A stretch of DNA of 64,000 bases from Dehalococcoidia bacterium (GCA_034408935.1 DAOUMV010000025.1:30281-94280); one strand, 5' to 3'. Shown: positions 4,737-63,134, counted from the stretch's first letter. Program-made: numbers and translations. The notes: a model not told the origin generated them from the sequence alone.

Positions 4737-4924
4737 CGCCCTGGCGTCTGCCCTACCTCTTGGTAGAAAACCGACCGGTCAGTACGCTGGGCCGGCGCGG
4801 CGCTCGAGCCCGCTGGTTACGGGATATATCTCTGCCCACCCATTGACACCCATATTATAAACAACCGATCTCGTCAAAGGTTACGCCCTCTCGAAAAGAT
4901 GTTCCGAAATTCCCGTTGGGACGC

Positions 4925-5950
4925 CTACAGCCGGTGCCCGAGCCGCTCCGCTGCGGCCAGGGCGAAGCCGTCCGTCATGCCCGCGACGTAGTCGGCTGCC
5001 CGTCGCCACGCCGCGTCCGACGCGATCACGAAGTCGCTCTCCATCTCCTCCGGCTGCGCGATGTAGTACCGGAAGAGGAAGCGCACCACCTGCTTCGCCC
5101 GCTCCGCCTCCTCACGCCGTCCCTCCCACATGTACACCCGCTGGAACATGAACTCTCGCAGGGCGTTCGCTGCCGCTAGCACCTCCTCGCTCATGCCGAT
5201 GTCCGGTGGCCCCTCACCCTCGCCCGTCGCTGCCCACGAATGCTCTACGATGTCTGTCACCAGGGTATCGATGCGCTGAGAGTGGCTCCTACCCAGCGTC
5301 TGCATCACCTCGGGGGGTAGTTCCTCCTCACTGATCAGCCCCGCCCGCGTCGCGTCGCCGATGTCGTGGTTGAGATAGGCCACCGCGTCGGCCAGCTTCA
5401 CGATCTGCCCCTCCAGGGTGGCTGGCGTCCCGTACCCCTCGGCGAGGATGTCCTCCAGCACCTTGGAGCTGTTGACGATCGCATCGCGCACCTCCCACGT
5501 CAGGTTCAGCTCCTCCAGCTTGTCCACCACCCGCAGGCTCTGCTCGGCGTGCCGGAAACCCGCCGGCAGCAGGTCCGACAAGGCCTGCTCCCCGGCGTGG
5601 CCGAAGGGCGGGTGTCCTAGGTCGTGTCCCAGAGCCGCCGCCTCCGCCAGATCCTCGTTCAGGTTCAGCGCCCGCGCGATCGTCCGTGCGATCTGCGCCA
5701 CCTCCAGCGTGTGCGTCAGCCGCGTTACGAAGTGATCCCCCACCGGCGCGATGAACACCTGCGTCTTGTGCTTCAGCCGCCGGAACGCCTTTGAGTGGAT
5801 GATTCGGTCCCGGTCCCGCTGGAACTCCGTCCGCAGCGGCGAGGGCTCCTCCGGCACCTCCCGGCCGCGGCTCTCGAAGCTCCTGGCCGCGTACGGCGAG
5901 AGCAGCCGCTCTCGCTCCTCCAGTCGCTGCCGGACGACGCTCAAGTCCAT
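4925..5950 (-). CDS. dgt: dGTP triphosphohydrolase-like HD protein
   Basis: FQRDRDRIIHSKAFRRLKHKTQVF, RLTHTLEV, GHDLGHPPFGHAGE, DYVAGMTD. Confidence 0.93.
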   Translation of the reverse strand: MDLSVVRQRLEERERLLSPYAARSFESRGREVPEEPSPLRTEFQRDRDRIIHSKAFRRLKHKTQVFIAPVGDHFVTRLTHTLEVAQIARTIARALNLNEDLAEAAALGHDLGHPPFGHAGEQALSDLLPAGFRHAEQSLRVVDKLEELNLTWEVRDAIVNSSKVLEDILAEGYGTPATLEGQIVKLADAVAYLNHDIGDATRAGLISEEELPPEVMQTLGRSHSQRIDTLVTDIVEHSWAATGEGEGPPDIGMSEEVLAAANALREFMFQRVYMWEGRREEAERAKQVVRFLFRYYIAQPEEMESDFVIASDAAWRRAADYVAGMTDGFALAAAERLGHRL

Positions 5951-6018
5951 ATCGAGGGCATTCTACACAAACGCCGCGTCGACGCGAAGGCCCCGGCGCA
6001 CCCGTTCCGACAGGCGTC

Positions 6019-6663
6019 CTACAGCGCCCGGCTCAGTGACCTGATCCCCGGGCACTTGTACACGGCTTCGAATTGGGGATCGCGCTTCTCGCCGATGACT
6101 TCGAACCCCGCCTTCTCGTACGCCCGTTGCGCTGGGTCGTTCCCGATCAGGACGCCAATGTCCGCCACGGTCGCCCCCCGTATTCGCCCTTCGTCGAGGA
6201 TCCTCACCATCAGTCGGTCCACCAGCCCTCTGCGGCGATACTCCGGCAGCGTCGCCACGTGCTCCACTATCCACACCCCAGGCTCGTGCTCCGGCGCGAC
6301 GCTGATGATCGAGCCGGCCCGCCCCCATCCCGCCGCGTGCTCCTCTTCGCTTCTGCCCACCGCCTCGTTCGCCTGCATCAGCCCTTCCCTCAGCGCTGGC
6401 GTCCCGCACTCCGCCTCGAAGTACCCGCACAGCGCCGACACCGTCCGCCCGTCCGCTTCCGCGACCAGGAACGTGGAGTAGTGCGCCCAATGGCGCTGCT
6501 CCGTCACCGCCAGCGCTTCGAGGTAGCGCAGGCAATCCCCCTCCGACCCTCCCACCACGAAGTCCCACAAACCATTATCGAGATGCGACCGATGCGCTGT
6601 CATCATCACCCATGCCAGAAACTTGGCGTCCTCCGGCCGGGCGTACTGGTATTGCACTTCCAT
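6019..6663 (-). CDS. GNAT-family N-acetyltransferase
   Basis: VATLPEYRRRGLV acetyl-CoA motif A; NDPAQRAYEKAGF motif B. Confidence 0.85.
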   Translation of the reverse strand: MEVQYQYARPEDAKFLAWVMMTAHRSHLDNGLWDFVVGGSEGDCLRYLEALAVTEQRHWAHYSTFLVAEADGRTVSALCGYFEAECGTPALREGLMQANEAVGRSEEEHAAGWGRAGSIISVAPEHEPGVWIVEHVATLPEYRRRGLVDRLMVRILDEGRIRGATVADIGVLIGNDPAQRAYEKAGFEVIGEKRDPQFEAVYKCPGIRSLSRAL

Positions 6664-51546: not shown

Positions 51547-52701
51547 ATGAAGCTATCAGTACCATTGATAGCTACGTTGACGGTATTCGCGGCTTTGGTG
51601 GCCTGCGGCGACGGGGGAGGAGAACCCACAGCTACACCCACAGCCGCGCCGACGGTGGCAACGACTCCCAGCCCGACTCCGGAGCCCACCGCTGCTCCAT
51701 CGCCCACCGCTACGGTGCGTCCGGCCGCTGCGGGCAAGATCGCCTTCCACTTCCCGGCCCCGGACGGCAACTACGAGATCTACGTCATGAACGCTGACGG
51801 CACAGGTCTGACCAACCTTACCAACAACACCCACGGCGGCGATTACGATCCCGCCTGGTCGCCGGACGGCTCCCGGATCGCCTTCCGCTCCAACCGCGAC
51901 GGCTTGGACGAGATCTACGTCATGAACGCTGACGGCACAGGCTTGACCAACCTTACCAACAGCAGCCAAGCCCACAATCGCTCTCCCGCCTGGTCGCCCG
52001 ACGGCAGCCGCATCGCCTTCTCCTCCAACCGCGACGGCCTGCTCAACGATATCTACGTCGTGAACGCCGACGGCTCCGGCGTGACCAACCTCACCGACGA
52101 CCCCAACGGCGGCGATTACGATCCCACCTGGTCGCCCGACGGTTCTCGCATCGCCTTCCGCTCCAACCGCGACGGCAACGACGATGTCTACGTCGTGAAC
52201 GCCGACGGCTCCGGCGTGACCAACCTCACTGACGACCCCCGCGAGGACATCGACCCCGCCTGGTCGCCCGGCGGCAGCCGCATCGCCTTCCGCTCCAACC
52301 CGGACCGCACCTGGAGCATCTATGTGATGAAAGCCGACGGCTCCGGCGTGACCCGGCTTACCGACAACCCCTACGGCGACTTCGAATTCGCCTGGTCCCC
52401 CGACGGCGGCCGTATCGCCTTCAACAGGGACCAACCAGGTATTGACTACGAGGTCTACGTGATGAACGCCGACGGCTCCGGCGTGACCAACCTCACTGAC
52501 GACCCCCGCGATGACATCCACCCCGCCTGGTCGCCCGACGGCACGAAAATCGCCTTTGTCTCCAGCCGCGACGGCACCTGGAACATCTACGTCATGAACG
52601 CCGATGGCTCCGGCATCACGAAGCTCACTAACAACACCGCCGCGGACACCGCCGAGGACACCTTCCCTGTTTGGTCGCCGGACTCAGGAGTGACCCCTTG
52701 A
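51547..52701 (+). CDS. Lipoprotein with a TolB-like beta-propeller (7 PD40 repeats)
   Basis: Lipobox LVA-C; PT linker; seven IAF.S.RDG..IYVMNADG...LT......PAWSPDG repeats. Confidence 0.9.
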   Translation: MKLSVPLIATLTVFAALVACGDGGGEPTATPTAAPTVATTPSPTPEPTAAPSPTATVRPAAAGKIAFHFPAPDGNYEIYVMNADGTGLTNLTNNTHGGDYDPAWSPDGSRIAFRSNRDGLDEIYVMNADGTGLTNLTNSSQAHNRSPAWSPDGSRIAFSSNRDGLLNDIYVVNADGSGVTNLTDDPNGGDYDPTWSPDGSRIAFRSNRDGNDDVYVVNADGSGVTNLTDDPREDIDPAWSPGGSRIAFRSNPDRTWSIYVMKADGSGVTRLTDNPYGDFEFAWSPDGGRIAFNRDQPGIDYEVYVMNADGSGVTNLTDDPRDDIHPAWSPDGTKIAFVSSRDGTWNIYVMNADGSGITKLTNNTAADTAEDTFPVWSPDSGVTP

Positions 52702-53537
52702 CGGCGGAGCAGCCGCCCATCGCCGCCATCGACGCCTGGGCCCAGCCGGGCACGGCAAAACTGATCAACGACCCGATGTTCGCCAGCCTCTGGCGGGCCA
52801 CCGGCACCACCCCTCTTCCCGCGGGCATCCCCATCGATCATCTCATCGGCGAGATGGACGCCGCCAACATCGAGCGCGCGGTCATCCGTGCCTGGGCCTC
52901 CCCCGACGGCTGGATCATCACCAACGACGAGATCGCCGACCTCGTCCAGCGCTTCCCCGATCGATTCCTCGGCCTCGCCACCGTCGACCTCAGGCGGCCC
53001 GTCGAGGCGGTCAACGAGCTGCGCAGGGCCGTCAACGACCTCGGCCTGCGCGGGCTGCACATGCTGCCCTGGATATGGAACCTCCCCCCCAACGACAAGC
53101 ACTACTACCCTCTCTACGTCGCCTGCATCGATCTGGGCATCCCCTTCTGCCTCCAGGTCGGGCACACCGGGCCTCTCCGCCCTTCGGACCCGGGTCGGCC
53201 CATCCCCTACGTCGACGAGGTGGCCCTCACCTTCCCCGATCTGACCATCATCGGCGGCCACATCGGCTACCCCTGGACCGACGAGATGATCGGCCTCGCC
53301 TGGAAGTACCCCAACGTCTACATCGAGACCTCCGCCTACCTGCCGCGATTCTACCCGCCCACCTTCCGCACGTTCATGAATGGCCAGGGCAAGAACAAGG
53401 TCATGTTCGGCACCAACTACCCCATGCTCTCTCCCTCCCGCTGCCGCGCCCAACTCAAGGAACTGGGCCTGAAGCCGGAGGTCGAGGAGAAGTTCCTCCG
53501 CCTCAACGCCCTCAAGGCCTTCGGTCTCACGGAGTGA
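52698..53537 (+). CDS. Amidohydrolase_2 family protein
   Basis: HTG, IIGGHIGYPW, NVYIETSA, MFGTNYP; probable TTG start overlapping the upstream stop. Confidence 0.85.
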   Translation: MTAEQPPIAAIDAWAQPGTAKLINDPMFASLWRATGTTPLPAGIPIDHLIGEMDAANIERAVIRAWASPDGWIITNDEIADLVQRFPDRFLGLATVDLRRPVEAVNELRRAVNDLGLRGLHMLPWIWNLPPNDKHYYPLYVACIDLGIPFCLQVGHTGPLRPSDPGRPIPYVDEVALTFPDLTIIGGHIGYPWTDEMIGLAWKYPNVYIETSAYLPRFYPPTFRTFMNGQGKNKVMFGTNYPMLSPSRCRAQLKELGLKPEVEEKFLRLNALKAFGLTE

Positions 53538-53538
53538 C

Positions 53539-55251
53539 GTGGTAGCCCGTCGTCCCCTCCGCATAATCCTCACCGGCTTCTCCGGCACCGGCAAGAGCCT
53601 CGTCGCCCCCCTCGTGGCCGACCGACTCCACTGGCAGGCCGTCGACACCGATTCCCATGTCGAGAAGGCTGCCGGCAAGCCCATCACCGATATCTTCGAG
53701 CAGGATAGCGAGCCCCGCTTCCGCGAGCTGGAGGCGGACGCCGTCCGCGATGCCTGCGCGCGCGAGCGGGCTGTCGTCTCCGTCGGCGGCGGCGCCATCC
53801 TCCGCCCCGACAACCGCCGCCTCCTCGCCGACGGTGGCTTCGTCGTCTGCCTGGAGGCGCGGCCGGAGACGATCCTCCGTCGCCTCAGAGAGGCTGCCCC
53901 CGCGGACGAGCCGCTGGATCGGCCCCTTCTCGTCGGCCCCGATCCCATCTCCCGCATCCGCGAGTTGAAGGAGCGTCGTCAGCCCTTCTACGCCTTGGCC
54001 GACCACACTGTCCACACCGACGGCCTGACGCTCGATCTCGTTGCGGAGGAGGTAGTCCGTGCCTGGCGCCGCCACTCTGTCTCAGCCCTGGCTGAGCCCG
54101 ATCGGCTTGGGGCCTTCGCCGACTCGCTCGTCACCGCCGCCCCGGGCCATGCAGCCCCCTCGGGCGCCGCCTGCGTCGTGCGCGCTTCCTCCGCTACCTA
54201 CCCCGTGTACGTGGACTGGAACGCGTTGTTCGACCTCGGCCTGCGACTGCGAGAGGCCGGGCTGACCACCCAGGCGTACGTTATCAGCGACGAGACTGTC
54301 TTCACGCGCTACGGCAAGCAGGTAGAGGCTGCCCTGACCCAGGCCGATATCCCTGTCGCCTCGTACGCCGTTCCCCCTGGCGAGGCGAGCAAGTCGCTGG
54401 ACACGGCCGCTGCCATCTACGATTGGCTCATCGGGCAGCGGGCGGAGCGCGGCCACGCCATCGTCGCTCTGGGAGGCGGCATGGTCACCGACCTGGCGGG
54501 CTGCGTCGCCGCCACCTACCTCCGCGGCCTGCCCCTCGTCCACGTCCCCACTAGCCTGCTGGCGATGGTGGACGCCGCCGTCGGCGGCAAGGTGGCGGTG
54601 AACCACCCGCAGGCCAAGAACGTCATCGGCGCCTTCTACCAGCCCCGTCTCGTCCTGGCGGACGTCTCGACGCTGCGCACGCTGCCTCCGCGGGAGCTCA
54701 CCTCCGGCTGGGCGGAGCTCATCAAGCATGCCCTGATCCTGGAACCCTATCTGTTGGCCTTCCTGGAGGAGCACGCCGACGCCATCCTGGGGCTTGAGCC
54801 CGAACCCACCACGGAGGCGATTTGTCGCAGCGTCGCCATCAAAGCGGCGGTGGTCAGCGAGGACGAGCGGGAGGAGACCGGCCGTCGCACCGTCCTCAAC
54901 TACGGCCACACCCTGGCCCACGCCATCGAGGCCGCCACCGAGTACGATCGGTTCCTCCACGGCGAGGCCGTGGCGATCGGGATGACGGCGGCCGCTGCCA
55001 TCAGCCGGCGCCTGGGGCTCCTCTCCCTGGACGTGGAACGGCGCCAGCGCGACCTGCTGGAGCGGTTCGGTCTGCCCACTCGCGCTCAGGGGTTGGACCG
55101 GGCGGCCCTTCTCTCGGCCATGGCCCTGGACAAGAAGGTCCGCGACAGGGCCATCCGTTGGGTGCTCCTGGAGGACATCGGCCGCACCGTCCTCCGCGAC
55201 GACGTATCCCAGGCCGTGGTCGAGCAGGCGCTGGACGAGGTGCTCGGCTAG
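53539..55251 (+). CDS. aroKB: Fused shikimate kinase / 3-dehydroquinate synthase
   Basis: GFSGTGKS, DTD, FRELE, GGG (AroK); GEASK, GGGMVTDLAG, PTSLLAMVDAAVGGK, LNYGHT..HAIE, HGEAVA (AroB). Confidence 0.95.
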   Translation: MVARRPLRIILTGFSGTGKSLVAPLVADRLHWQAVDTDSHVEKAAGKPITDIFEQDSEPRFRELEADAVRDACARERAVVSVGGGAILRPDNRRLLADGGFVVCLEARPETILRRLREAAPADEPLDRPLLVGPDPISRIRELKERRQPFYALADHTVHTDGLTLDLVAEEVVRAWRRHSVSALAEPDRLGAFADSLVTAAPGHAAPSGAACVVRASSATYPVYVDWNALFDLGLRLREAGLTTQAYVISDETVFTRYGKQVEAALTQADIPVASYAVPPGEASKSLDTAAAIYDWLIGQRAERGHAIVALGGGMVTDLAGCVAATYLRGLPLVHVPTSLLAMVDAAVGGKVAVNHPQAKNVIGAFYQPRLVLADVSTLRTLPPRELTSGWAELIKHALILEPYLLAFLEEHADAILGLEPEPTTEAICRSVAIKAAVVSEDEREETGRRTVLNYGHTLAHAIEAATEYDRFLHGEAVAIGMTAAAAISRRLGLLSLDVERRQRDLLERFGLPTRAQGLDRAALLSAMALDKKVRDRAIRWVLLEDIGRTVLRDDVSQAVVEQALDEVLG

Positions 55252-55255
55252 GGCG

Positions 55256-55546
55256 ATGGCCGAACCCTCTGCCGCGGCCCTCCGCGCTGTCGTCCGCGGC
55301 CGCGTCCAGGGCGTCAATTTCCGCGAGTACGTCCTGACCCGCGCCCGTTTCCTCGGCCTAGCGGGCTACGTCCGCAACCTGCCCGACGGCCGCTCGGTGG
55401 AGGTCGTCGCCGAGGGCCCGCGCCCAGACCTGGAGCAGCTCGTCGAGCACCTGCACGAGGGGCCCCGCATGTCCCGCGTGGACGCCGTCGATGTCGAGTG
55501 GGGTGAGCCGAGCGGCGACTACAGCCACTTCGGGGTAGGGTACTAG
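55256..55546 (+). CDS. acyP: Acylphosphatase
   Basis: GRVQGVNFR, GYVRNLPDGRSVEVVAEG. Confidence 0.93.
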   Translation: MAEPSAAALRAVVRGRVQGVNFREYVLTRARFLGLAGYVRNLPDGRSVEVVAEGPRPDLEQLVEHLHEGPRMSRVDAVDVEWGEPSGDYSHFGVGY

Positions 55547-55613: not shown

Positions 55614-56012
55614 TCAGCTTTCGCCGAGGCTGCTGGAGCCTTCCGGTCGAAAGGTGCGTCGCCAGGTTTCGAGGCCGACGGAGGCCCTGGCCACGCCTGC
55701 CGCCGGGATCAGCAGCTCGATGGTCTCGAGGATCTCCTCGGGAGTCGCCCCTTCCCTTTGCGCTCGCTCCATGTGCGCCCTGACGTGCGCCTCTGCCGCG
55801 CCGAGTGCCACAAGCACACCTATGTAGATGAGCTCCTTGGTCTTGCCGTCCAGTCGACGCCCTTTCAAGTACAGGGCGTTCATCATCTCCTCGTACGCGG
55901 CCAGGACATCCGTGTCCTCGCGAGCGAGCACTGAGTGGAGGGGGAGCGAGTAGCCGCGAGCCCTTCGTGCGGCGTCCAGGATCTCCTCGCCTCGTTTGGG
56001 GTCAGCGCTCAT
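55614..56012 (-). CDS. Carboxymuconolactone decarboxylase/AhpD-fold protein (no CxxC)
   Basis: LDGKTKELIYIGVLVALG, HVRAHMERA...GAT.EEI.E; ATGA overlap with the upstream stop. Confidence 0.8.
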   Translation of the reverse strand: MSADPKRGEEILDAARRARGYSLPLHSVLAREDTDVLAAYEEMMNALYLKGRRLDGKTKELIYIGVLVALGAAEAHVRAHMERAQREGATPEEILETIELLIPAAGVARASVGLETWRRTFRPEGSSSLGES

Positions 56013-57337
56013 ACGGCCACGGCCTTGCCGCCAGCGGGGAGGCTCTCCATCGCTGCGACCACTGCGCACCCGAAGGCATCGACCGCGAAATCGATGTCTT
56101 CCTCGCTGTGAACGGTCGAGACGTAGAACCTGGTCTGCAGCTGGGCGAGGACCTGCCGCCGGATCAGCTCCCGGTTCACGGCAGCCTTCAGCGCGCGCCC
56201 CGTCCCTGGCTCGCGCGGGTCCGAAAACTCCACCGCGGCGATAGGCCCGCTGCCTGTCACGGATCCCGCCACTCCCTGCTTGTTGAGCTCCCCTGTTAGG
56301 CCGGTTCGCAAGCGCCTCCCCAGTTCGTGGAGGTGTTCGTATGTCCCTGGCTGCTCCAGTTCGGCCAGCGTCGCCAGCCCCGCCACCGCCGAGATCGGGT
56401 TCCCGCTCAGCGTCCCGCTCACGTGGACGAAGCTGGCGCTTGACGCCCGCGCGGGATCCATCAGTCCCATGATCTTCCCCCGGCCCGCAACGGCCGACAA
56501 GGGGAACCCGCCGCCCAGGATCTTGCCGTAGCACAGCAGGTCGGGCTCCACGCCGTAGTACTCCTGCGCTCCCCCGAAGGCGAGGCGGAAGCCCGTCATC
56601 ACCTCATCGAAGATCAAAATGGTTCCCTCGGCCCGGCACATATCCGCCAGTCGCTCCAGGAAGCCGGGCACGGGGTCGATGGAGCGTTGCTGGGGCTCCA
56701 CGAGGACTGCGGCGAGGGAGGGCCCGTGGAGGGCAAAGGCTGCCTCCACGCTGGCGATATCGTTGAATTGGGCGACGGCTGTGTCCTCGATAACGCCGCG
56801 CGGAACGCCCCCGCTCTCGGCCCTCGCTGCTCCCCGATGGCCAACGAGCGATACCTCGTGGCTGCCGTGGTAGGAGCCGGCAAACACAAGCACCTTGTCT
56901 CGTCCCGTGTACGCGCGTGCCAGTCGCACGGAATGAAGCGTCGCCTCCGTGCCCGTGGAGGCGAAGCGAACCGTCTCCACACAGCCGGGGATCTCCGCCA
57001 CGCGCTCCGCCAATTCCACGATGGGCCGACTGGTTGCGCAGAACGTCGAACCCCTTTCCAACTGTCGCGCCACAGCCTCAGACACCCGCGGGTGGGCGTG
57101 TCCGAGGATGAGAGGACCGGAGCCCAGGAGGAAGTCCACGTACTCGCGTCCGCTGTCGTCCCAGACGCGGCAGCCAGAGCCTCGTTCTAGGCAGGCGTCG
57201 AGCGGCAACGGGAAGGCGGAGTTGGAGCCCCCAACGAGAACACCCGGTGCTGCCCGAGCCTCAGACGAGGCCACCGCCACGGCGGGCCCCCGCCTCGTTG
57301 CCACCCCGCTCTTGATATCTACCGCAACCTGTATCAT
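56009..57337 (-). CDS. Class-III PLP aminotransferase (GSA-aminomutase / beta-amino-acid transaminase-like)
   Basis: GCRVWDDSGREYVDF, GHAHP, STGTEA, YHG, LIFDEVMTGFR, YGKILGGG (PLP Lys), GTLSGNP. Confidence 0.88.
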   Translation of the reverse strand: MIQVAVDIKSGVATRRGPAVAVASSEARAAPGVLVGGSNSAFPLPLDACLERGSGCRVWDDSGREYVDFLLGSGPLILGHAHPRVSEAVARQLERGSTFCATSRPIVELAERVAEIPGCVETVRFASTGTEATLHSVRLARAYTGRDKVLVFAGSYHGSHEVSLVGHRGAARAESGGVPRGVIEDTAVAQFNDIASVEAAFALHGPSLAAVLVEPQQRSIDPVPGFLERLADMCRAEGTILIFDEVMTGFRLAFGGAQEYYGVEPDLLCYGKILGGGFPLSAVAGRGKIMGLMDPARASSASFVHVSGTLSGNPISAVAGLATLAELEQPGTYEHLHELGRRLRTGLTGELNKQGVAGSVTGSGPIAAVEFSDPREPGTGRALKAAVNRELIRRQVLAQLQTRFYVSTVHSEEDIDFAVDAFGCAVVAAMESLPAGGKAVAV

Positions 57338-57369
57338 CCCGGATCTCCCTGTCTCTGCCGGTGGGCATC

Positions 57370-57402
57370 AAAAAAGACCCCACCACTATCGGCTGTGAGG
57401 CC
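57370..57402 (-). terminator. Intrinsic terminator (riboswitch expression platform)
   Basis: Minus strand GGCCTCAC-N11-GTGGGGTC-TTTTTT directly after the aptamer. Confidence 0.8.
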
Positions 57403-57522
57403 TTTCCCCCGCCTGCGGGCTTAGCTTAGCGGTTCGGGCTGAAAGGCTAGCCCTACTCGCCTACGCGAGACTCACCGCGAGATCCGGGTCGCCCGCTTCC
57501 TTACGGAGATTCGGCGGCTGAG
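57401..57522 (-). ncRNA. c-di-AMP (ydaO-yuaA) riboswitch, leftward
   Basis: Minus strand CCGAATC...GGGCGACCC...GCGGTGAGTC...GTAGGGCT...AGCCCGAACC..AAGCTAAGCCCGCAGGC matches the ydaO conserved blocks. Confidence 0.85.
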
Positions 57523-57789
57523 CGTGTTCTCACCAATGGTAACGCCTGAAACGGCCATCGCGCTACGTGTCAAGACTGCCAGCGCGGAGGAAATTTCATA
57601 ATTTGTTGCGCGCCTCTAGATTGCCCGGTGGGCTTGACAGGATACCTGTGGCCTAGGGTAACATTGGCGGCCGATGCTCGTCTGTATCTACGGACGAAGT
57701 AGGCGATCGGTGGACGTTGGCTGCAGGGAGATGATCTCTAGTGTCGGGGGTCCACCGGTGATGTATAATATATAGGAAAACAGAATACA

Positions 57790-57918
57790 TGCGGCCGAAC
57801 CCCGGCGAATGCGCCGGGGACGGGGGACCCGACCGATTGGGGTGAATCTCGCCTGAGGCGAGTAGGCGATCTCCTTCCGCCGAACCCGACAGCTAACCTC
57901 GTAGGCACCAAGGAGAGG
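57790..57918 (+). ncRNA. c-di-AMP (ydaO-yuaA) riboswitch, rightward
   Basis: CCGAACCCC...GGGGACGGGGGACCC...TTGGGGTGAATC...GTAGGCG...CGCCGAACCCGACAGCTAACCTCGTAGGC...GGAGAG; TATAAT at 57764-57769 upstream. Confidence 0.92.
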
Positions 57919-57933
57919 ATAGTCCGGAGAGCA

Positions 57934-57962
57934 AGAGACCCGGGGCTATGCCTCGGGTCTCT
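57934..57962 (+). terminator. 13-bp hairpin downstream of the aptamer (candidate expression platform, weak U tract)
   Basis: AGAGACCCGGGGC-TAT-GCCTCGGGTCTCT. Confidence 0.55.
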
Positions 57963-58010
57963 CTGCACTTAAAGGAGGGCTGTCTTCTCCGGAGGAAAGG
58001 AGGGACGTCC

Positions 58011-59576
58011 ATGACGAAACACTGGCACAGCAAATGGCGAGATGCCGTCGGGGACGTCTCCGAGCTCACGAACTACATAGACCTGAACCCGCGTGAGCTC
58101 ACCAAGCTCAGGGAGATGCACAGGCTTGGGGAGAGGGATGTAGGGTACCCTTCCCTCTCATGCATTGAGGAGGGCTCCGAGAGTCCCCCCAAGTACCGCG
58201 CGTTCACTCTCAGCAACTTCCGCGAGCTTCCACAGGTTCAGCGGCTCTCGAAGGAGGAACAGTTCGCCATCGAGGTCGTCGCCCAGGTTCTCCCGTTCAA
58301 GACCAACAGCTACGTGGTGGAGCAGCTCATCGACTGGGGCCACGTCCCGAACGATCCCATGTTCGTGCTGAACTTCCCGCAGAGGGAGATGCTCCTGCCG
58401 CGTCACTTCGATGAGGTAGCTGCCCTCCTCCGCCGCGAGGCAGACCGGCGCGAGATCGAGGCAGTCGTCAACCGCATCCGCCTGGAGCTCAACCCGCATC
58501 CCGCCGGCCAACTCGACCACAACGTCCCCACCCTCGGCACAACCAAGCTCACCGGCATGCAGCATAAGTACCGCGAGACCGTGCTCTTCTTCCCCAGCAA
58601 CGGCCAGACCTGCCACGCCTTCTGTACCTTCTGCTTCCGTTGGCCGCAGTTCGTTGGCATGAACGACCTCAAGTTCGCCATGCAGGAAGCGGAACTTCTC
58701 ATCCAATACCTTCGTGCTCACCCTGAGGTGTCCGACGTGCTGTTCACGGGCGGCGACCCGATGATCATGCGCGCGGGGACCCTCGAACGCTACATCGCGC
58801 CGCTGCTGAAGGCTCGCCTCCCCAACCTGCGCACCATCCGCATCGGTACCAAGGCCCTCAGCTACTGGCCATATCGTTTCCTCACGGACGAAGACGCCGA
58901 TGACGTGATGCATCTGTTCCAGCGGATTACGGCTTCGGGGCTTCACCTTGCGCTCATGGCCCAGTTCAACCATCCGCGGGAGCTGAGCACGGACGCTGTC
59001 AAGGTGGCCATCGCTCGCATCAGGGACACTGGTGCCGAAATACGCACCCAGTCGCCCTTGATGCGAAACATCAATGACAGCGCCGAAGTGTGGGCGGACA
59101 TGTGGCGCCAGCAGGTGCAACTGGGCTGCGTTCCGTACTACATGTTCGTGGCGCGGGACACCGGCGCCCAGCACTACTTCAGCGTGCCCCTGGTGCGCGC
59201 CTCGGAGATCTTCACAGAGGCCCACAACTCTGTCAGTGGACTCGCTCGCACCGTCCGTGGGCCGAGCATGTCCGCTGACCCCGGCAAGGTGCAGGTGCTG
59301 GGCGTCACCGAGATCGGCGGCGATAAGGTGATCGCCCTACGCATGCTCCAGGGCCGCAACCCCGATTGGGCGATGCGCCTGTTCTTCGCCGAGTACGACG
59401 AGGACGCGGTCTGGCTGAGCGACCTGCGGCCCGCCTTCGGCGACAAGCACTTCTTCTTCGAGGCGGAACTGGAGCGCTTGTACCTCAGGAACACGGCAAG
59501 GGGGCGTGGACGGCGCCACAACGGCCGTAATGGAGCCCGGGACGAAGACGAGCCTCTGGCCACTACCCCGACCTAG
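58011..59576 (+). CDS. KamA-family radical-SAM/PLP aminomutase-like protein
   Basis: HKYRETVL..P...TCHAFCTFCFR (CxxxCxxC), VLFTGGDP, IRIGTK, QFNHPREL, QSPL, PYYMF, DPGK; GGAGG RBS at the 58011 ATG. Confidence 0.88.
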   Translation: MTKHWHSKWRDAVGDVSELTNYIDLNPRELTKLREMHRLGERDVGYPSLSCIEEGSESPPKYRAFTLSNFRELPQVQRLSKEEQFAIEVVAQVLPFKTNSYVVEQLIDWGHVPNDPMFVLNFPQREMLLPRHFDEVAALLRREADRREIEAVVNRIRLELNPHPAGQLDHNVPTLGTTKLTGMQHKYRETVLFFPSNGQTCHAFCTFCFRWPQFVGMNDLKFAMQEAELLIQYLRAHPEVSDVLFTGGDPMIMRAGTLERYIAPLLKARLPNLRTIRIGTKALSYWPYRFLTDEDADDVMHLFQRITASGLHLALMAQFNHPRELSTDAVKVAIARIRDTGAEIRTQSPLMRNINDSAEVWADMWRQQVQLGCVPYYMFVARDTGAQHYFSVPLVRASEIFTEAHNSVSGLARTVRGPSMSADPGKVQVLGVTEIGGDKVIALRMLQGRNPDWAMRLFFAEYDEDAVWLSDLRPAFGDKHFFFEAELERLYLRNTARGRGRRHNGRNGARDEDEPLATTPT

Positions 59577-59675: not shown

Positions 59676-60953
59676 CTACGTGCCCCACTCCTCACCCTGG
59701 CTCCAGTCCAGCATGATGATCTCTATCTCTTCCCCGGGCTGCACCTCGTCCATGTCCGGCGGGATCACCGTCAGCCCGTTGGCGTGCACCATTGACGTCA
59801 GCATCCCCGAGCCCTGCGGCCCCGTCGGCGAGGCGTAGTAGCGCCCCTCCTTCTCCCGCACGATGCAGCGGGCGTAGAACCGCCGAGGGTCGTTCCTGTT
59901 GACGAAGCGTTCCTCGGCCACCGCCCTCACCATCGGCTTTCCCCAGTTCGTCTTCCCCATCATCTTCATCAACGCTGGCCGCCCGAACAGCTCGAACGTC
60001 ACCATGGAGCTCACCGGGTTCCCAGGCAGCCCGATGTGGGGTACTGTCCGGTCGCCCTGCCGGAAGCAGCCGAACGCCAGCGGCTTGCCGGGCTTCATCG
60101 CCACTGTCCAGAAGTCGATATCGCCCTCCCGCGCCAGCACCTCCTTCACCACGTCGTAGTCGCCGCGAGAGACCCCGGCGGACGTGATCAGCATATCGGC
60201 GTCTAGGCCCTCGTGGATCTTCGCGGTCAGCGCCTCGACCGTGTCCTTAGCGATGCCCAGCAGCCGCGGCACGCCCCCGTACCGCCGCACCAGGGCTCCC
60301 ACGCTATGGGCGTTCGCGTCGTAGATCTTCGCCGGTGGCCGCGGTTGTCCCGCCTCCACCAGTTCGTCTCCCGTTGACAGGACCGCCACCGCAGGCCGCC
60401 GGATCACCAGCGCTGTGACCCGTCCCAACGAGGCCAGCACGCCGATCTCCGAAGGCCTCAACACTCGGCCCTTGCTCATCACTGGCTGCCCGGAGCGCAC
60501 GTCTTCGCCTGCTTTCCTGACGTTCTTTCCCACTCCGACCTCTTTGAGCACCCGCACCGCCGCGTCCACGTGCTGCGAGCGCTCCGGTGCCTTCTCGAAC
60601 GGCTCGTCCGTGTCTTCGAACCGGACGACCGCGTCGGCCCCGGCGGGTACCGCCGCCCCCGTCATGATGCGCACCGCTGTCCCGGACCTCACTTCGCCTT
60701 CAAACACGTAGCCCGCCGCCACCTCGCCCACAACCTGCAGTTTCACCGGTGAGTCCGGCGACGCCCCACGCGTGTCCTCTGCCCGCACCGCGTACCCGTC
60801 CATCGCCGTGTTATCCAGGGGCGGTATGTCGAACGCTGCGGCGACGTCTTCGGCCAGGACTTGGCCCAGTGCCTCCAGCAGGGGCTTCTCCTCCGGCTCC
60901 AGCACCTCCACGTAGCCGAGGATGCGTTCCAGCGCCTCGTCAACAGTGATCAC
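59676..60953 (-). CDS. moeA: Molybdopterin molybdenumtransferase
   Basis: NTAMDGYA, RIMTGA, STGDEL, SAGVSRGDYD, KPGKP, GLPGNPVSS, QGSG. Confidence 0.95.
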   Translation of the reverse strand: MITVDEALERILGYVEVLEPEEKPLLEALGQVLAEDVAAAFDIPPLDNTAMDGYAVRAEDTRGASPDSPVKLQVVGEVAAGYVFEGEVRSGTAVRIMTGAAVPAGADAVVRFEDTDEPFEKAPERSQHVDAAVRVLKEVGVGKNVRKAGEDVRSGQPVMSKGRVLRPSEIGVLASLGRVTALVIRRPAVAVLSTGDELVEAGQPRPPAKIYDANAHSVGALVRRYGGVPRLLGIAKDTVEALTAKIHEGLDADMLITSAGVSRGDYDVVKEVLAREGDIDFWTVAMKPGKPLAFGCFRQGDRTVPHIGLPGNPVSSMVTFELFGRPALMKMMGKTNWGKPMVRAVAEERFVNRNDPRRFYARCIVREKEGRYYASPTGPQGSGMLTSMVHANGLTVIPPDMDEVQPGEEIEIIMLDWSQGEEWGT

Positions 60954-60964
60954 GACGGTTCACC

Positions 60965-63134
<2,170 letters not shown>

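Follow-up and report, generated by a model that had tools for sequence, protein, structure and literature searches.

Two c-di-AMP aptamers on the divergent arms of a Dehalococcoidia locus that encodes an orphan KamA-like aminomutase homologue and a predicted transaminase

What might be made or broken down by a locus in which two divergent transcription units each start with a riboswitch for cyclic di-adenosine monophosphate (c-di-AMP)? The locus in question lies in a stretch of 64,000 nt (hereafter the window) from Dehalococcoidia bacterium GCA_034408935.1 (DAOUMV010000025.1:30281-94280; G+C ~64-68%), the nearest relatives of which are Dehalococcoidia/Chloroflexota metagenome-assembled genomes. 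One arm encodes a KamA-like radical S-adenosylmethionine (radical-SAM) protein, while the other encodes a class-III pyridoxal 5'-phosphate (PLP) enzyme related to glutamate-1-semialdehyde 2,1-aminomutase (GSAM, HemL) and a protein with the carboxymuconolactone decarboxylase (CMD)/AhpD fold. An earlier note on this DNA had placed the locus at 55614-59576, a span that turned out to be exact for the whole locus, and had proposed one c-di-AMP-controlled pathway of a beta-amino-acid solute. We favour, with a probability of about one half, the reading that the locus is a c-di-AMP regulon module with two OFF-switched arms, in which a non-lysine 2,3-aminomutase together with a GSAM-derived transaminase and the CMD protein would serve a beta-amino-acid compatible solute. 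The features, in coordinates of the window, are as follows:

55614..56012, minus strand: CMD (carboxymuconolactone decarboxylase/AhpD-fold) protein, 132 aa (PF02627)
56009..57337, minus strand: GSAM-like class-III PLP enzyme, 442 aa, predicted transaminase (PF00202)
57370..57408, minus strand: intrinsic terminator of the GSAM arm, stem GGGAAAGGCCUCAC/GUGGGGUCUUUUUU and U6 run
57397..57526, minus strand: aptamer RF00379 of the GSAM-arm type, full model, 72.8 bits, E 6e-15
57783..57922, plus strand: aptamer RF00379 of the KamA-arm type, full model, 97.8 bits, E 6e-22
57927..57970, plus strand: terminator-like GC-rich hairpin of the KamA arm, core stem 57931-57966 (RNAfold and conservation)
58011..59576, plus strand: KamA-like PLP/radical-SAM 2,3-aminomutase homologue, 521 aa, of an orphan clade

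An Rfam cmscan of the window returned exactly two matches at the gathering threshold, both to the c-di-AMP riboswitch RF00379 (gathering score 38 bits) and both aligned to model positions 1-134. The pair of back-to-back ydaO-type aptamers that had been proposed was thereby recovered well above the threshold, and the two aptamers are divergent with a 256-nt spacer between them. Related loci, numbered with an L in the following, were scanned with Rfam, or else with a model derived from 16 aptamers in 9 loci. Orthologues of the KamA-arm aptamer scored 94-102 bits (L001, L002, L047, L048, L050, L053, L055) and those of the GSAM-arm aptamer 46-68 bits (L001, L047, L048, L050, L051, L053, L055). Among the 16 aptamers, which also served as covariation set, compensatory double changes keep pairing in 11 of the 22 predicted pairs, and at two helix pairs the orientation is flipped between the arms: all eight KamA-type copies have G-C, while C-G stands in eight GSAM-type copies at one pair and in seven at the other. 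The set falls into two lineages, KamA-type with 94-102 bits and GSAM-type with 46-73 bits, which track the gene and not the position. Since the lineages follow their gene through a change of gene order, the two switches are old paralogues, each tied to its gene. This retention is good evidence that both switches are functional and that selection acts on the co-regulation of both genes, while it says less about whether the proteins belong to one pathway.

A conserved hairpin follows every aptamer in every orthologous locus, with U-runs in most of them. On the KamA arm the hairpin lies directly 3' of the aptamer (RNAfold -33.5 kcal/mol, z -4.35); with its loop CUAUG it is kept in eight orthologous leaders, of which L001, L050 and L053 have clear U-runs. 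The GSAM arm carries a terminator of the classical A-tract/U-tract kind (RNAfold -30.4 kcal/mol for 57355-57420 on the minus strand), the 5' arm of which overlaps the 3' tail of the aptamer, and hairpin and U6-7 run are kept in six orthologues (L001, L047, L048, L050, L051, L053). Both terminators were established by folding and conservation and not by consensus scan: a consensus promoter/terminator scan of 57250-58100 called neither hairpin and no sigma-70 promoter. A TATAAT at 57764-57769 (plus strand) is a promoter candidate only. Minimum free energy folding of the full leaders yielded no clear antiterminator. From this architecture and from the behaviour of the aptamer class (PMC9337991), we infer that both platforms are transcription-termination OFF switches, which would respond to c-di-AMP by terminating.

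The leader of the KamA arm shows an additional complementarity between the 3' tail of the aptamer (AGGAGAGGAUAGUCC, 57910-57925) and a segment behind the terminator (GGGCUGUCUUCUCC, 57980-57994), just before the Shine-Dalgarno sequence on the plus strand. A like complementarity 3' of the terminator is present in L050 and L053 (CUAUCCCUG / UGUCUCUGG), and such pairing could form a second, translational or stability, layer of control. The KamA-like gene itself starts at 58011 with MTKHWHSK, on which the public gene call and the orthologues agree, and GGAAAGGAGGG stands just 5' of this start. The ATG at 57948, given as the start in the earlier note, is in frame; since it falls within the terminator hairpin, it was replaced by 58011.

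Which reaction does the KamA-like protein catalyze? All KamA-family models of NCBIfam matched the 521-aa protein at 92-120 bits and none was passed. The best match was TIGR00238 (KamA family radical SAM) with 120.5 against a cut-off of 199.2, while the AblA/KamA equivalog TIGR03820 gave 110 against 525 and TIGR04368, the model of glutamate 2,3-aminomutase (Eam), gave 93.9 against 650. Lysine 2,3-aminomutase (LAM) 2A5H is the sole PDB sequence match of the protein. It is also the best PDB match (E 1.4e-15) in a Foldseek search with the AlphaFold (AF2) model, which has a predicted local distance difference test score (pLDDT) of 79.8; other radical-SAM folds followed at 2.5e-5 or weaker. For residue mapping, 160 clade members were aligned with the LAM sequence of 2A5H, which had been verified residue for residue. 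The Fe-S cluster motif CxxxCxxC (C201/C205/C208) and the equivalent of LAM Arg134, which binds the alpha-carboxylate (R210), are invariant in the 160 members, and the PLP-binding lysine (LAM Lys337; K426) is found in 159 of them. The four cysteines of the LAM zinc site are absent in the clade. With the LAM fold and these three elements in place, the protein falls within the LAM-like subgroup, as its designation as a KamA-type radical-SAM aminomutase had implied.

The pocket that holds the lysine side chain in LAM is changed. Asp293 and Asp330 of LAM, which bind the lysine epsilon-amine, correspond to R382 and S419, and the clade has Arg at the former position in 160 of 160 members and Ser at the latter in 151. 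These two positions decide specificity, lysine enzymes having Asp/Asp and glutamate 2,3-aminomutases Lys/Asn (PMC3965090); with Arg/Ser, the clade does not follow the residue rule of Eam. With both lysine-binding aspartates replaced, the substrate is unlikely to be lysine and likely to be an amino acid of acidic or neutral character. As far as can be read from the alignment, the clade very likely comprises PLP/radical-SAM aminomutases that do not use lysine, and by analogy the pocket may take up a side chain that is anionic or accepts hydrogen bonds. With 357 representatives at 50% clustering (E <= 1e-30) the clade is large, and it is strongly conserved, with identities of 57-66% between members from Chloroflexota, Bacteroidota, Ignavibacteriota, Planctomycetota, Nitrosopumilaceae and Thermoplasmatota. 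Searches of the literature brought up nothing relevant on a clade member of established function, on c-di-AMP riboswitches in Chloroflexi or on Nitrosopumilus aminomutases. A related domain occurs in an 882-aa fusion protein (P0245; L056, 6337-8985), where an L-lysine/L-ornithine N-monooxygenase domain (PF13434) is joined to a KamA-like domain 51% identical to the window protein. The fusion keeps Arg at the LAM-293 position and has Val at 330, and its surroundings resemble those of natural-product genes (cupin, ATP-grasp ligase, FemAB-like protein, RamC-like lanthionine synthetase).

The first enzyme of the other arm has the class-III aminotransferase fold (PF00202, E 1.7e-61, 208.6 bits against 30.5), and its GK-motif lysine aligns with the PLP lysine of HemL, to representatives of which it is ~40% identical. 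It fails both HemL models, with 326 against a cut-off of 527 for hemL TIGR00713 and 345 against 398 for NF000818, whereas a true HemL encountered in L018 scores 618 with the former. HemL motifs were compared across 85 members of the GSAM-like clade. The HemL segment GGVNSPVRAF reads GG.NSAF..P in the clade (GGSNSAFPLP in the window), and therefore the motif arginine is lost. Furthermore, the gating-loop region is shorter by 3+ residues, EPxAGNMGVV is replaced by EP---QQRSxDP, and QFE(G/A)LF by T--RFY, so that the glutamate is gone. In our reading of the alignment, the arginine of T--RFY probably takes the place from which class-III transaminases as a rule hold the alpha-carboxylate. The best non-HemL match in the PDB is 6K8H (224 bits), the beta/gamma-amino-acid omega-transaminase StoTA of Sphaerobacter thermophilus. 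The earlier note had named a true HemL as the outcome that would overturn its proposal; by scores, motif, loop and QFE segment the enzyme is not HemL, and it is predicted to be a transaminase that evolved from the GSAM/HemL lineage. A scan of metagenome contigs with the GSAM-like protein was discarded: it was dominated by the universal FDEVMTGF peptide and brought up true HemLs at 36-46% identity, with only L058 relevant.

These results bear on one explanation of the locus, namely that the ordinary annotation is right. The relatives carry the public names 'L-lysine 2,3-aminomutase' and 'glutamate-1-semialdehyde 2,1-aminomutase', and riboswitch control of ablA is known, both of which speak for it. 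The explanation is nevertheless very improbable, since the proteins score far below the AblA and hemL cut-offs that the true HemL of L018 exceeds in the latter case, both lysine-binding aspartates are replaced across the KamA-like clade, and motif, gating loop and QFE segment of HemL are all altered. Moreover, no ablB-type (GNAT) beta-lysine acetyltransferase gene was present among the locus neighbours, as assessed by family searches and public gene calls.

The third protein belongs to the CMD family (PF02627, 58.6 bits against a cut-off of 23, E 6e-16) and scores 24 against 155.7 with the PcaC equivalog TIGR02425. It contains no cysteine, hence lacks the CxxC of AhpD and is no redox protein of that type; its best PDB match, 2Q0T, is a structure without assigned function. 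The stop codon of the GSAM-like gene and the start codon of the CMD gene overlap in ATGA. The translational coupling of the two genes, asserted earlier, is plausible from this overlap. The pair is kept in L047, L048, L049 and L055, and at 51% identity in L052.

Is the arrangement itself conserved? Twelve distinct loci of Chloroflexota, with protein identities of 61-85%, have a riboswitch paired with a KamA-like gene. In eight of the 12, a GSAM-like gene adjoins the KamA-like gene, in two gene orders and with each gene behind its own riboswitch. The arrangements are:

Divergent, aptamers back to back: window/L046, L001, L047, L048, L055, L058
Tandem on one strand, aptamer-GSAM-like-aptamer-KamA-like, without CMD: L050 (complete genome CP070630.1), L053/L054
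Aptamer and KamA-like gene only: L002, L138, L139, L140
Aptamer and GSAM-like gene only: L051
GSAM-like and CMD genes at 51% identity, without riboswitch or KamA-like gene: L052

In the divergent loci, the CMD gene is present wherever the contig extends far enough (window, L047, L048, L055). The KamA-like gene without any aptamer was found in three Chloroflexota loci (L004, L006, L008) and in 31 loci of other phyla. Thus, of the linkage that had been expected elsewhere between the three genes and the riboswitches, the part that concerns the KamA-like and GSAM-like genes stands (8 Chloroflexota loci), while an obligatory trio does not, as CMD is lacking in L050 and L053. Nor is the trio a general unit, given the four loci with the KamA-like gene alone, the one with the GSAM-like gene alone, and the other neighbours and absence of a riboswitch outside Chloroflexota.

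Outside Chloroflexota the KamA-like gene adjoins an unclassified class I/II aminotransferase gene in 10 of 45 loci (L007, L011, L014, L018, L019, L021-L023, L045 and L003; Bacteroidota, Ignavibacteriota, Calditrichota). These neighbours of ~431 aa matched no NCBIfam equivalog, the best score being 197 against 550. The pairing of aminomutase and transaminase therefore recurs with a different transaminase fold, and it hints independently at a pathway shared by the two. By contrast, a shared partner of the clade in other phyla that is not a transaminase was sought and rejected as pathway evidence, the contexts being heterogeneous. They include the aspartate 1-decarboxylase gene panD 22 nt upstream of the KamA-like gene in Thermodesulfovibrio (L040, 6102-6452), the glutamine synthetase gene glnA downstream of it in Nitrosopumilaceae (L016, 5781-7292), and the arg and parAB operons near it in Dysgonomonadaceae. 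They further include a Dehalococcoidales locus (L006), in which an HMGL/homocitrate-synthase-like gene (4829-6022) overlaps the start of the KamA-like gene and is translationally coupled to it.

The same distribution raises the possibility that the two arms belong to one c-di-AMP regulon and are biochemically independent, clustering only because riboswitch-controlled stress genes group. This is what the loci with a riboswitch and one enzyme gene alone would suggest (KamA-like in L002, L138, L139 and L140; GSAM-like in L051), as would the GSAM-like and CMD genes without KamA-like gene or riboswitch in L052 and the varied KamA-like neighbours outside Chloroflexota. However, the adjacency is kept in eight of 12 loci across 61-85% protein identity, the linkage outlasted the rearrangement between divergent and tandem order with both aptamers retained, and in other phyla the clade has an aminotransferase of unrelated fold as partner. 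We therefore regard independent arms as unlikely.

Several observations were made around individual related loci. The genes next to the tandem module of L053 (1158-6537) encode a protein with a BON domain, two glycosyltransferases of the GT4 family and a glycoside hydrolase of the MGH1-like/GDE kind, a set suggestive of glycoside compatible-solute metabolism or an osmotic setting, which counts in favour of a solute role. In L051 (4800-6442), the riboswitch-GSAM-like unit lies beside two tRNA genes, a serine recombinase, a terminase and an integrase, at the edge of an integrated element. Other CMD-family genes occur less than 2 kb from riboswitch-KamA-like units that have no GSAM-like gene (L139, 4105-4422; L140, 7551-8099), and tblastn detected no similarity between them and the CMD gene of the window.

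How might the parts work together? In the module that we favour, two divergent promoters would each transcribe a c-di-AMP aptamer and then an intrinsic terminator. At high c-di-AMP both arms would terminate, while a drop of c-di-AMP, as caused in other bacteria by osmotic upshift or K+ limitation, would lead to read-through of both leaders. The KamA-like enzyme would then take an acidic or neutral alpha-amino acid and shift its amino group to C3, and the resulting beta-amino acid would serve as, or lead to, a compatible solute. The GSAM-like transaminase, sometimes with its CMD partner, would either supply the alpha-amino-acid substrate or convert the beta-amino acid. Our leading guess for the KamA-like reaction is the conversion of glutamate to beta-glutamate; alternatives are 2-aminoadipate, to which a single locus (L006) points, and glutamine. 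Beta-glutamate and N-epsilon-acetyl-beta-lysine are established osmolytes (PMC1224877).

The main rival of this module is a catabolic route, in which an alpha-amino acid (e.g. glutamate) would be turned into a beta-amino acid, this into a beta-keto acid (e.g. 3-oxoglutarate), and the latter decarboxylated by the CMD protein (e.g. to acetoacetate), a new branch of amino-acid fermentation or assimilation under c-di-AMP control. Each of the three proteins would thereby obtain a chemically sensible step: the GSAM lineage includes beta-amino-acid transaminases (4AO9, 2YKU and 6K8H are among the PDB matches), and CMD is nominally a decarboxylase family. It would also fit with the retention of the GSAM-like/CMD pair down to 51% identity, the pair of L052 adjoining a peptide ABC transporter, and with the Bacillus subtilis operon shared by kamA and the class-III aminotransferase gene yodT, which is thought to be catabolic. 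On the other hand, we know of no beta-keto-acid decarboxylase of the CMD fold, the protein of the window is not a PcaC equivalog, and CMD is missing in the tandem loci. In addition, OFF platforms would, by the behaviour of their class, give expression at low c-di-AMP, when cells accumulate and do not degrade solutes (PMC9337991). Taken together, a catabolic role appears rather improbable.

A number of points weigh against the solute module as well. At the level of regulation, the U-tail of the KamA-arm terminator is poor or degenerate in the window (CUCUGCACUU), and no promoter consensus was found in the scan of 57250-58100. The aptamers of the GSAM arm score lower (46-73 bits) and deviate at some conserved positions (GUGAGU, AAGCUAAG), which makes them putative binders of c-di-AMP. 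At the level of the pathway, CMD is dispensable, being absent from the tandem loci L050 and L053. Four loci have a riboswitch and the KamA-like gene with no transaminase gene within 6-8 kb, and one has a riboswitch and the transaminase gene alone; both enzymes can therefore work apart. Regarding substrate and product, both the KamA-like and the GSAM-like clade are orphans, and the Arg/Ser signature is no test but an analogy. Directly behind the pocket arginine stands an invariant Asp (R382-D383), which could alter the charge of the pocket. Finally, beta-glutamate is followed by no obvious biosynthetic transaminase step.

The surroundings in the window delimit the two units. Both arms end at convergent genes, moeA (59676-60953) and an acylphosphatase gene (55256-55546), so that the KamA arm consists of one gene and the GSAM arm of two; the KamA-like gene is monocistronic and convergent with moeA. 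Further neighbours are a tyrosine phenol-lyase gene (60965-62554, minus strand; TIGR02618, 789 bits, above the cut-off) and a gene for a fused shikimate kinase/3-dehydroquinate synthase (AroK-AroB; 53539-55251, plus strand). The longest open reading frame (ORF) of the tyrosine phenol-lyase has ~73 extra N-terminal residues, and hence its true start is probably further in. Long antisense ORFs that overlap the AroK-AroB region (e.g. 54082-55317 and 52587-53957) have no family matches and look like high-GC artefacts.

What would be new if the module is read correctly? Aptamer class and terminator logic are already known, as is the idea that a KamA-type aminomutase can be under riboswitch control for osmoadaptation. 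New are the orphan, widespread and probably non-lysine enzyme clade, the GSAM-derived transaminase with its CMD partner, and the deployment of one of two paralogous aptamers on each arm. As a tentative and wider proposal, the KamA-like clade (at least 357 clusters at 50% identity) may represent a new substrate class. With a dedicated transaminase, GSAM-like in Chloroflexota and class I/II elsewhere, it may make up a pathway of two or three steps that has not been described before and is wired in Dehalococcoidia to c-di-AMP through two separately evolved aptamers. This pathway could yield either a new beta-amino-acid-derived compatible solute or a new route from glutamate to a beta-keto acid; that all of this holds jointly is possible but somewhat doubtful.

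The riboswitch that accompanies a gene is among the few hints at function that can be had for orphan enzymes from uncultured bacteria. In the present case it suggests that a large and highly conserved clade, now misnamed "lysine 2,3-aminomutase", has to do with osmotic or K+ physiology rather than with lysine. Should glutamate or a related compound prove to be the substrate, the clade would stand for a second route to solutes of the beta-glutamate type, one that is widespread and extends to abundant sediment Chloroflexota and to marine ammonia-oxidising archaea; thousands of database names of KamA-like and "HemL" proteins would also have to be corrected. The locus further offers a natural example of two paralogous aptamers for the same ligand that co-regulate two transcription units and have outlasted a change of gene order.

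Among known systems, the closest is the ablA gene (lysine 2,3-aminomutase) of Dehalobacter sp. CF, which was experimentally shown to be turned off by a c-di-AMP riboswitch (White et al. 2022, PMC9337991); ablA and eam genes under Na+ riboswitches have also been described (PMC9337991). The regulatory idea is thus not new in kind, since a c-di-AMP riboswitch on an aminomutase gene was already published. Both loci have the same aptamer class, a terminator-type OFF platform and a gene of the KamA superfamily, and in both the proposed role is to stop the synthesis of a beta-amino-acid osmolyte at high c-di-AMP. In contrast to Dehalobacter, the Dehalococcoidia locus has no tandem Na+ riboswitch but two c-di-AMP aptamers of distinct lineages on two arms; its aminomutase is not AblA (Arg/Ser, far below the equivalog cut-off), ablB is lacking, and GSAM-like and CMD proteins are the partners.

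With LAM (2A5H) and Eam, the KamA-like protein shares the LAM fold, CxxxCxxC, the Arg134 equivalent and the PLP lysine. As in Eam, one basic and one small polar residue stand in place of the two lysine-binding aspartates, although these are Arg/Ser here and Lys/Asn in Eam. It is only ~22% identical to LAM and has no zinc-site cysteines, it also carries an additional N-terminal region that is conserved (residues ~60-180), and its C-terminal domain is unlike that of either enzyme.

The GSAM-like enzyme resembles HemL in class-III fold, PLP lysine and ~40% identity, but it lacks the substrate-binding Arg motif and the Glu segment, has a shorter gating loop and appears to carry an Arg at the class-III alpha-carboxylate position. 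Its lineage includes true transaminases acting on beta- or gamma-amino acids, such as StoTA (6K8H), yet it has no close relative among the characterised beta-transaminases (224 bits to 6K8H). A linkage of a KamA-family aminomutase with a class-III aminotransferase is also found in the yodT-yodS-yodR-yodQ-yodP-kamA operon of B. subtilis. There, KamA is a true lysine 2,3-aminomutase, the operon contains additional genes for an acetyltransferase, a deacetylase and CoA-transferase subunits, and control is exerted by sporulation and not by a riboswitch; the two systems have in common the pairing of the two enzyme families.

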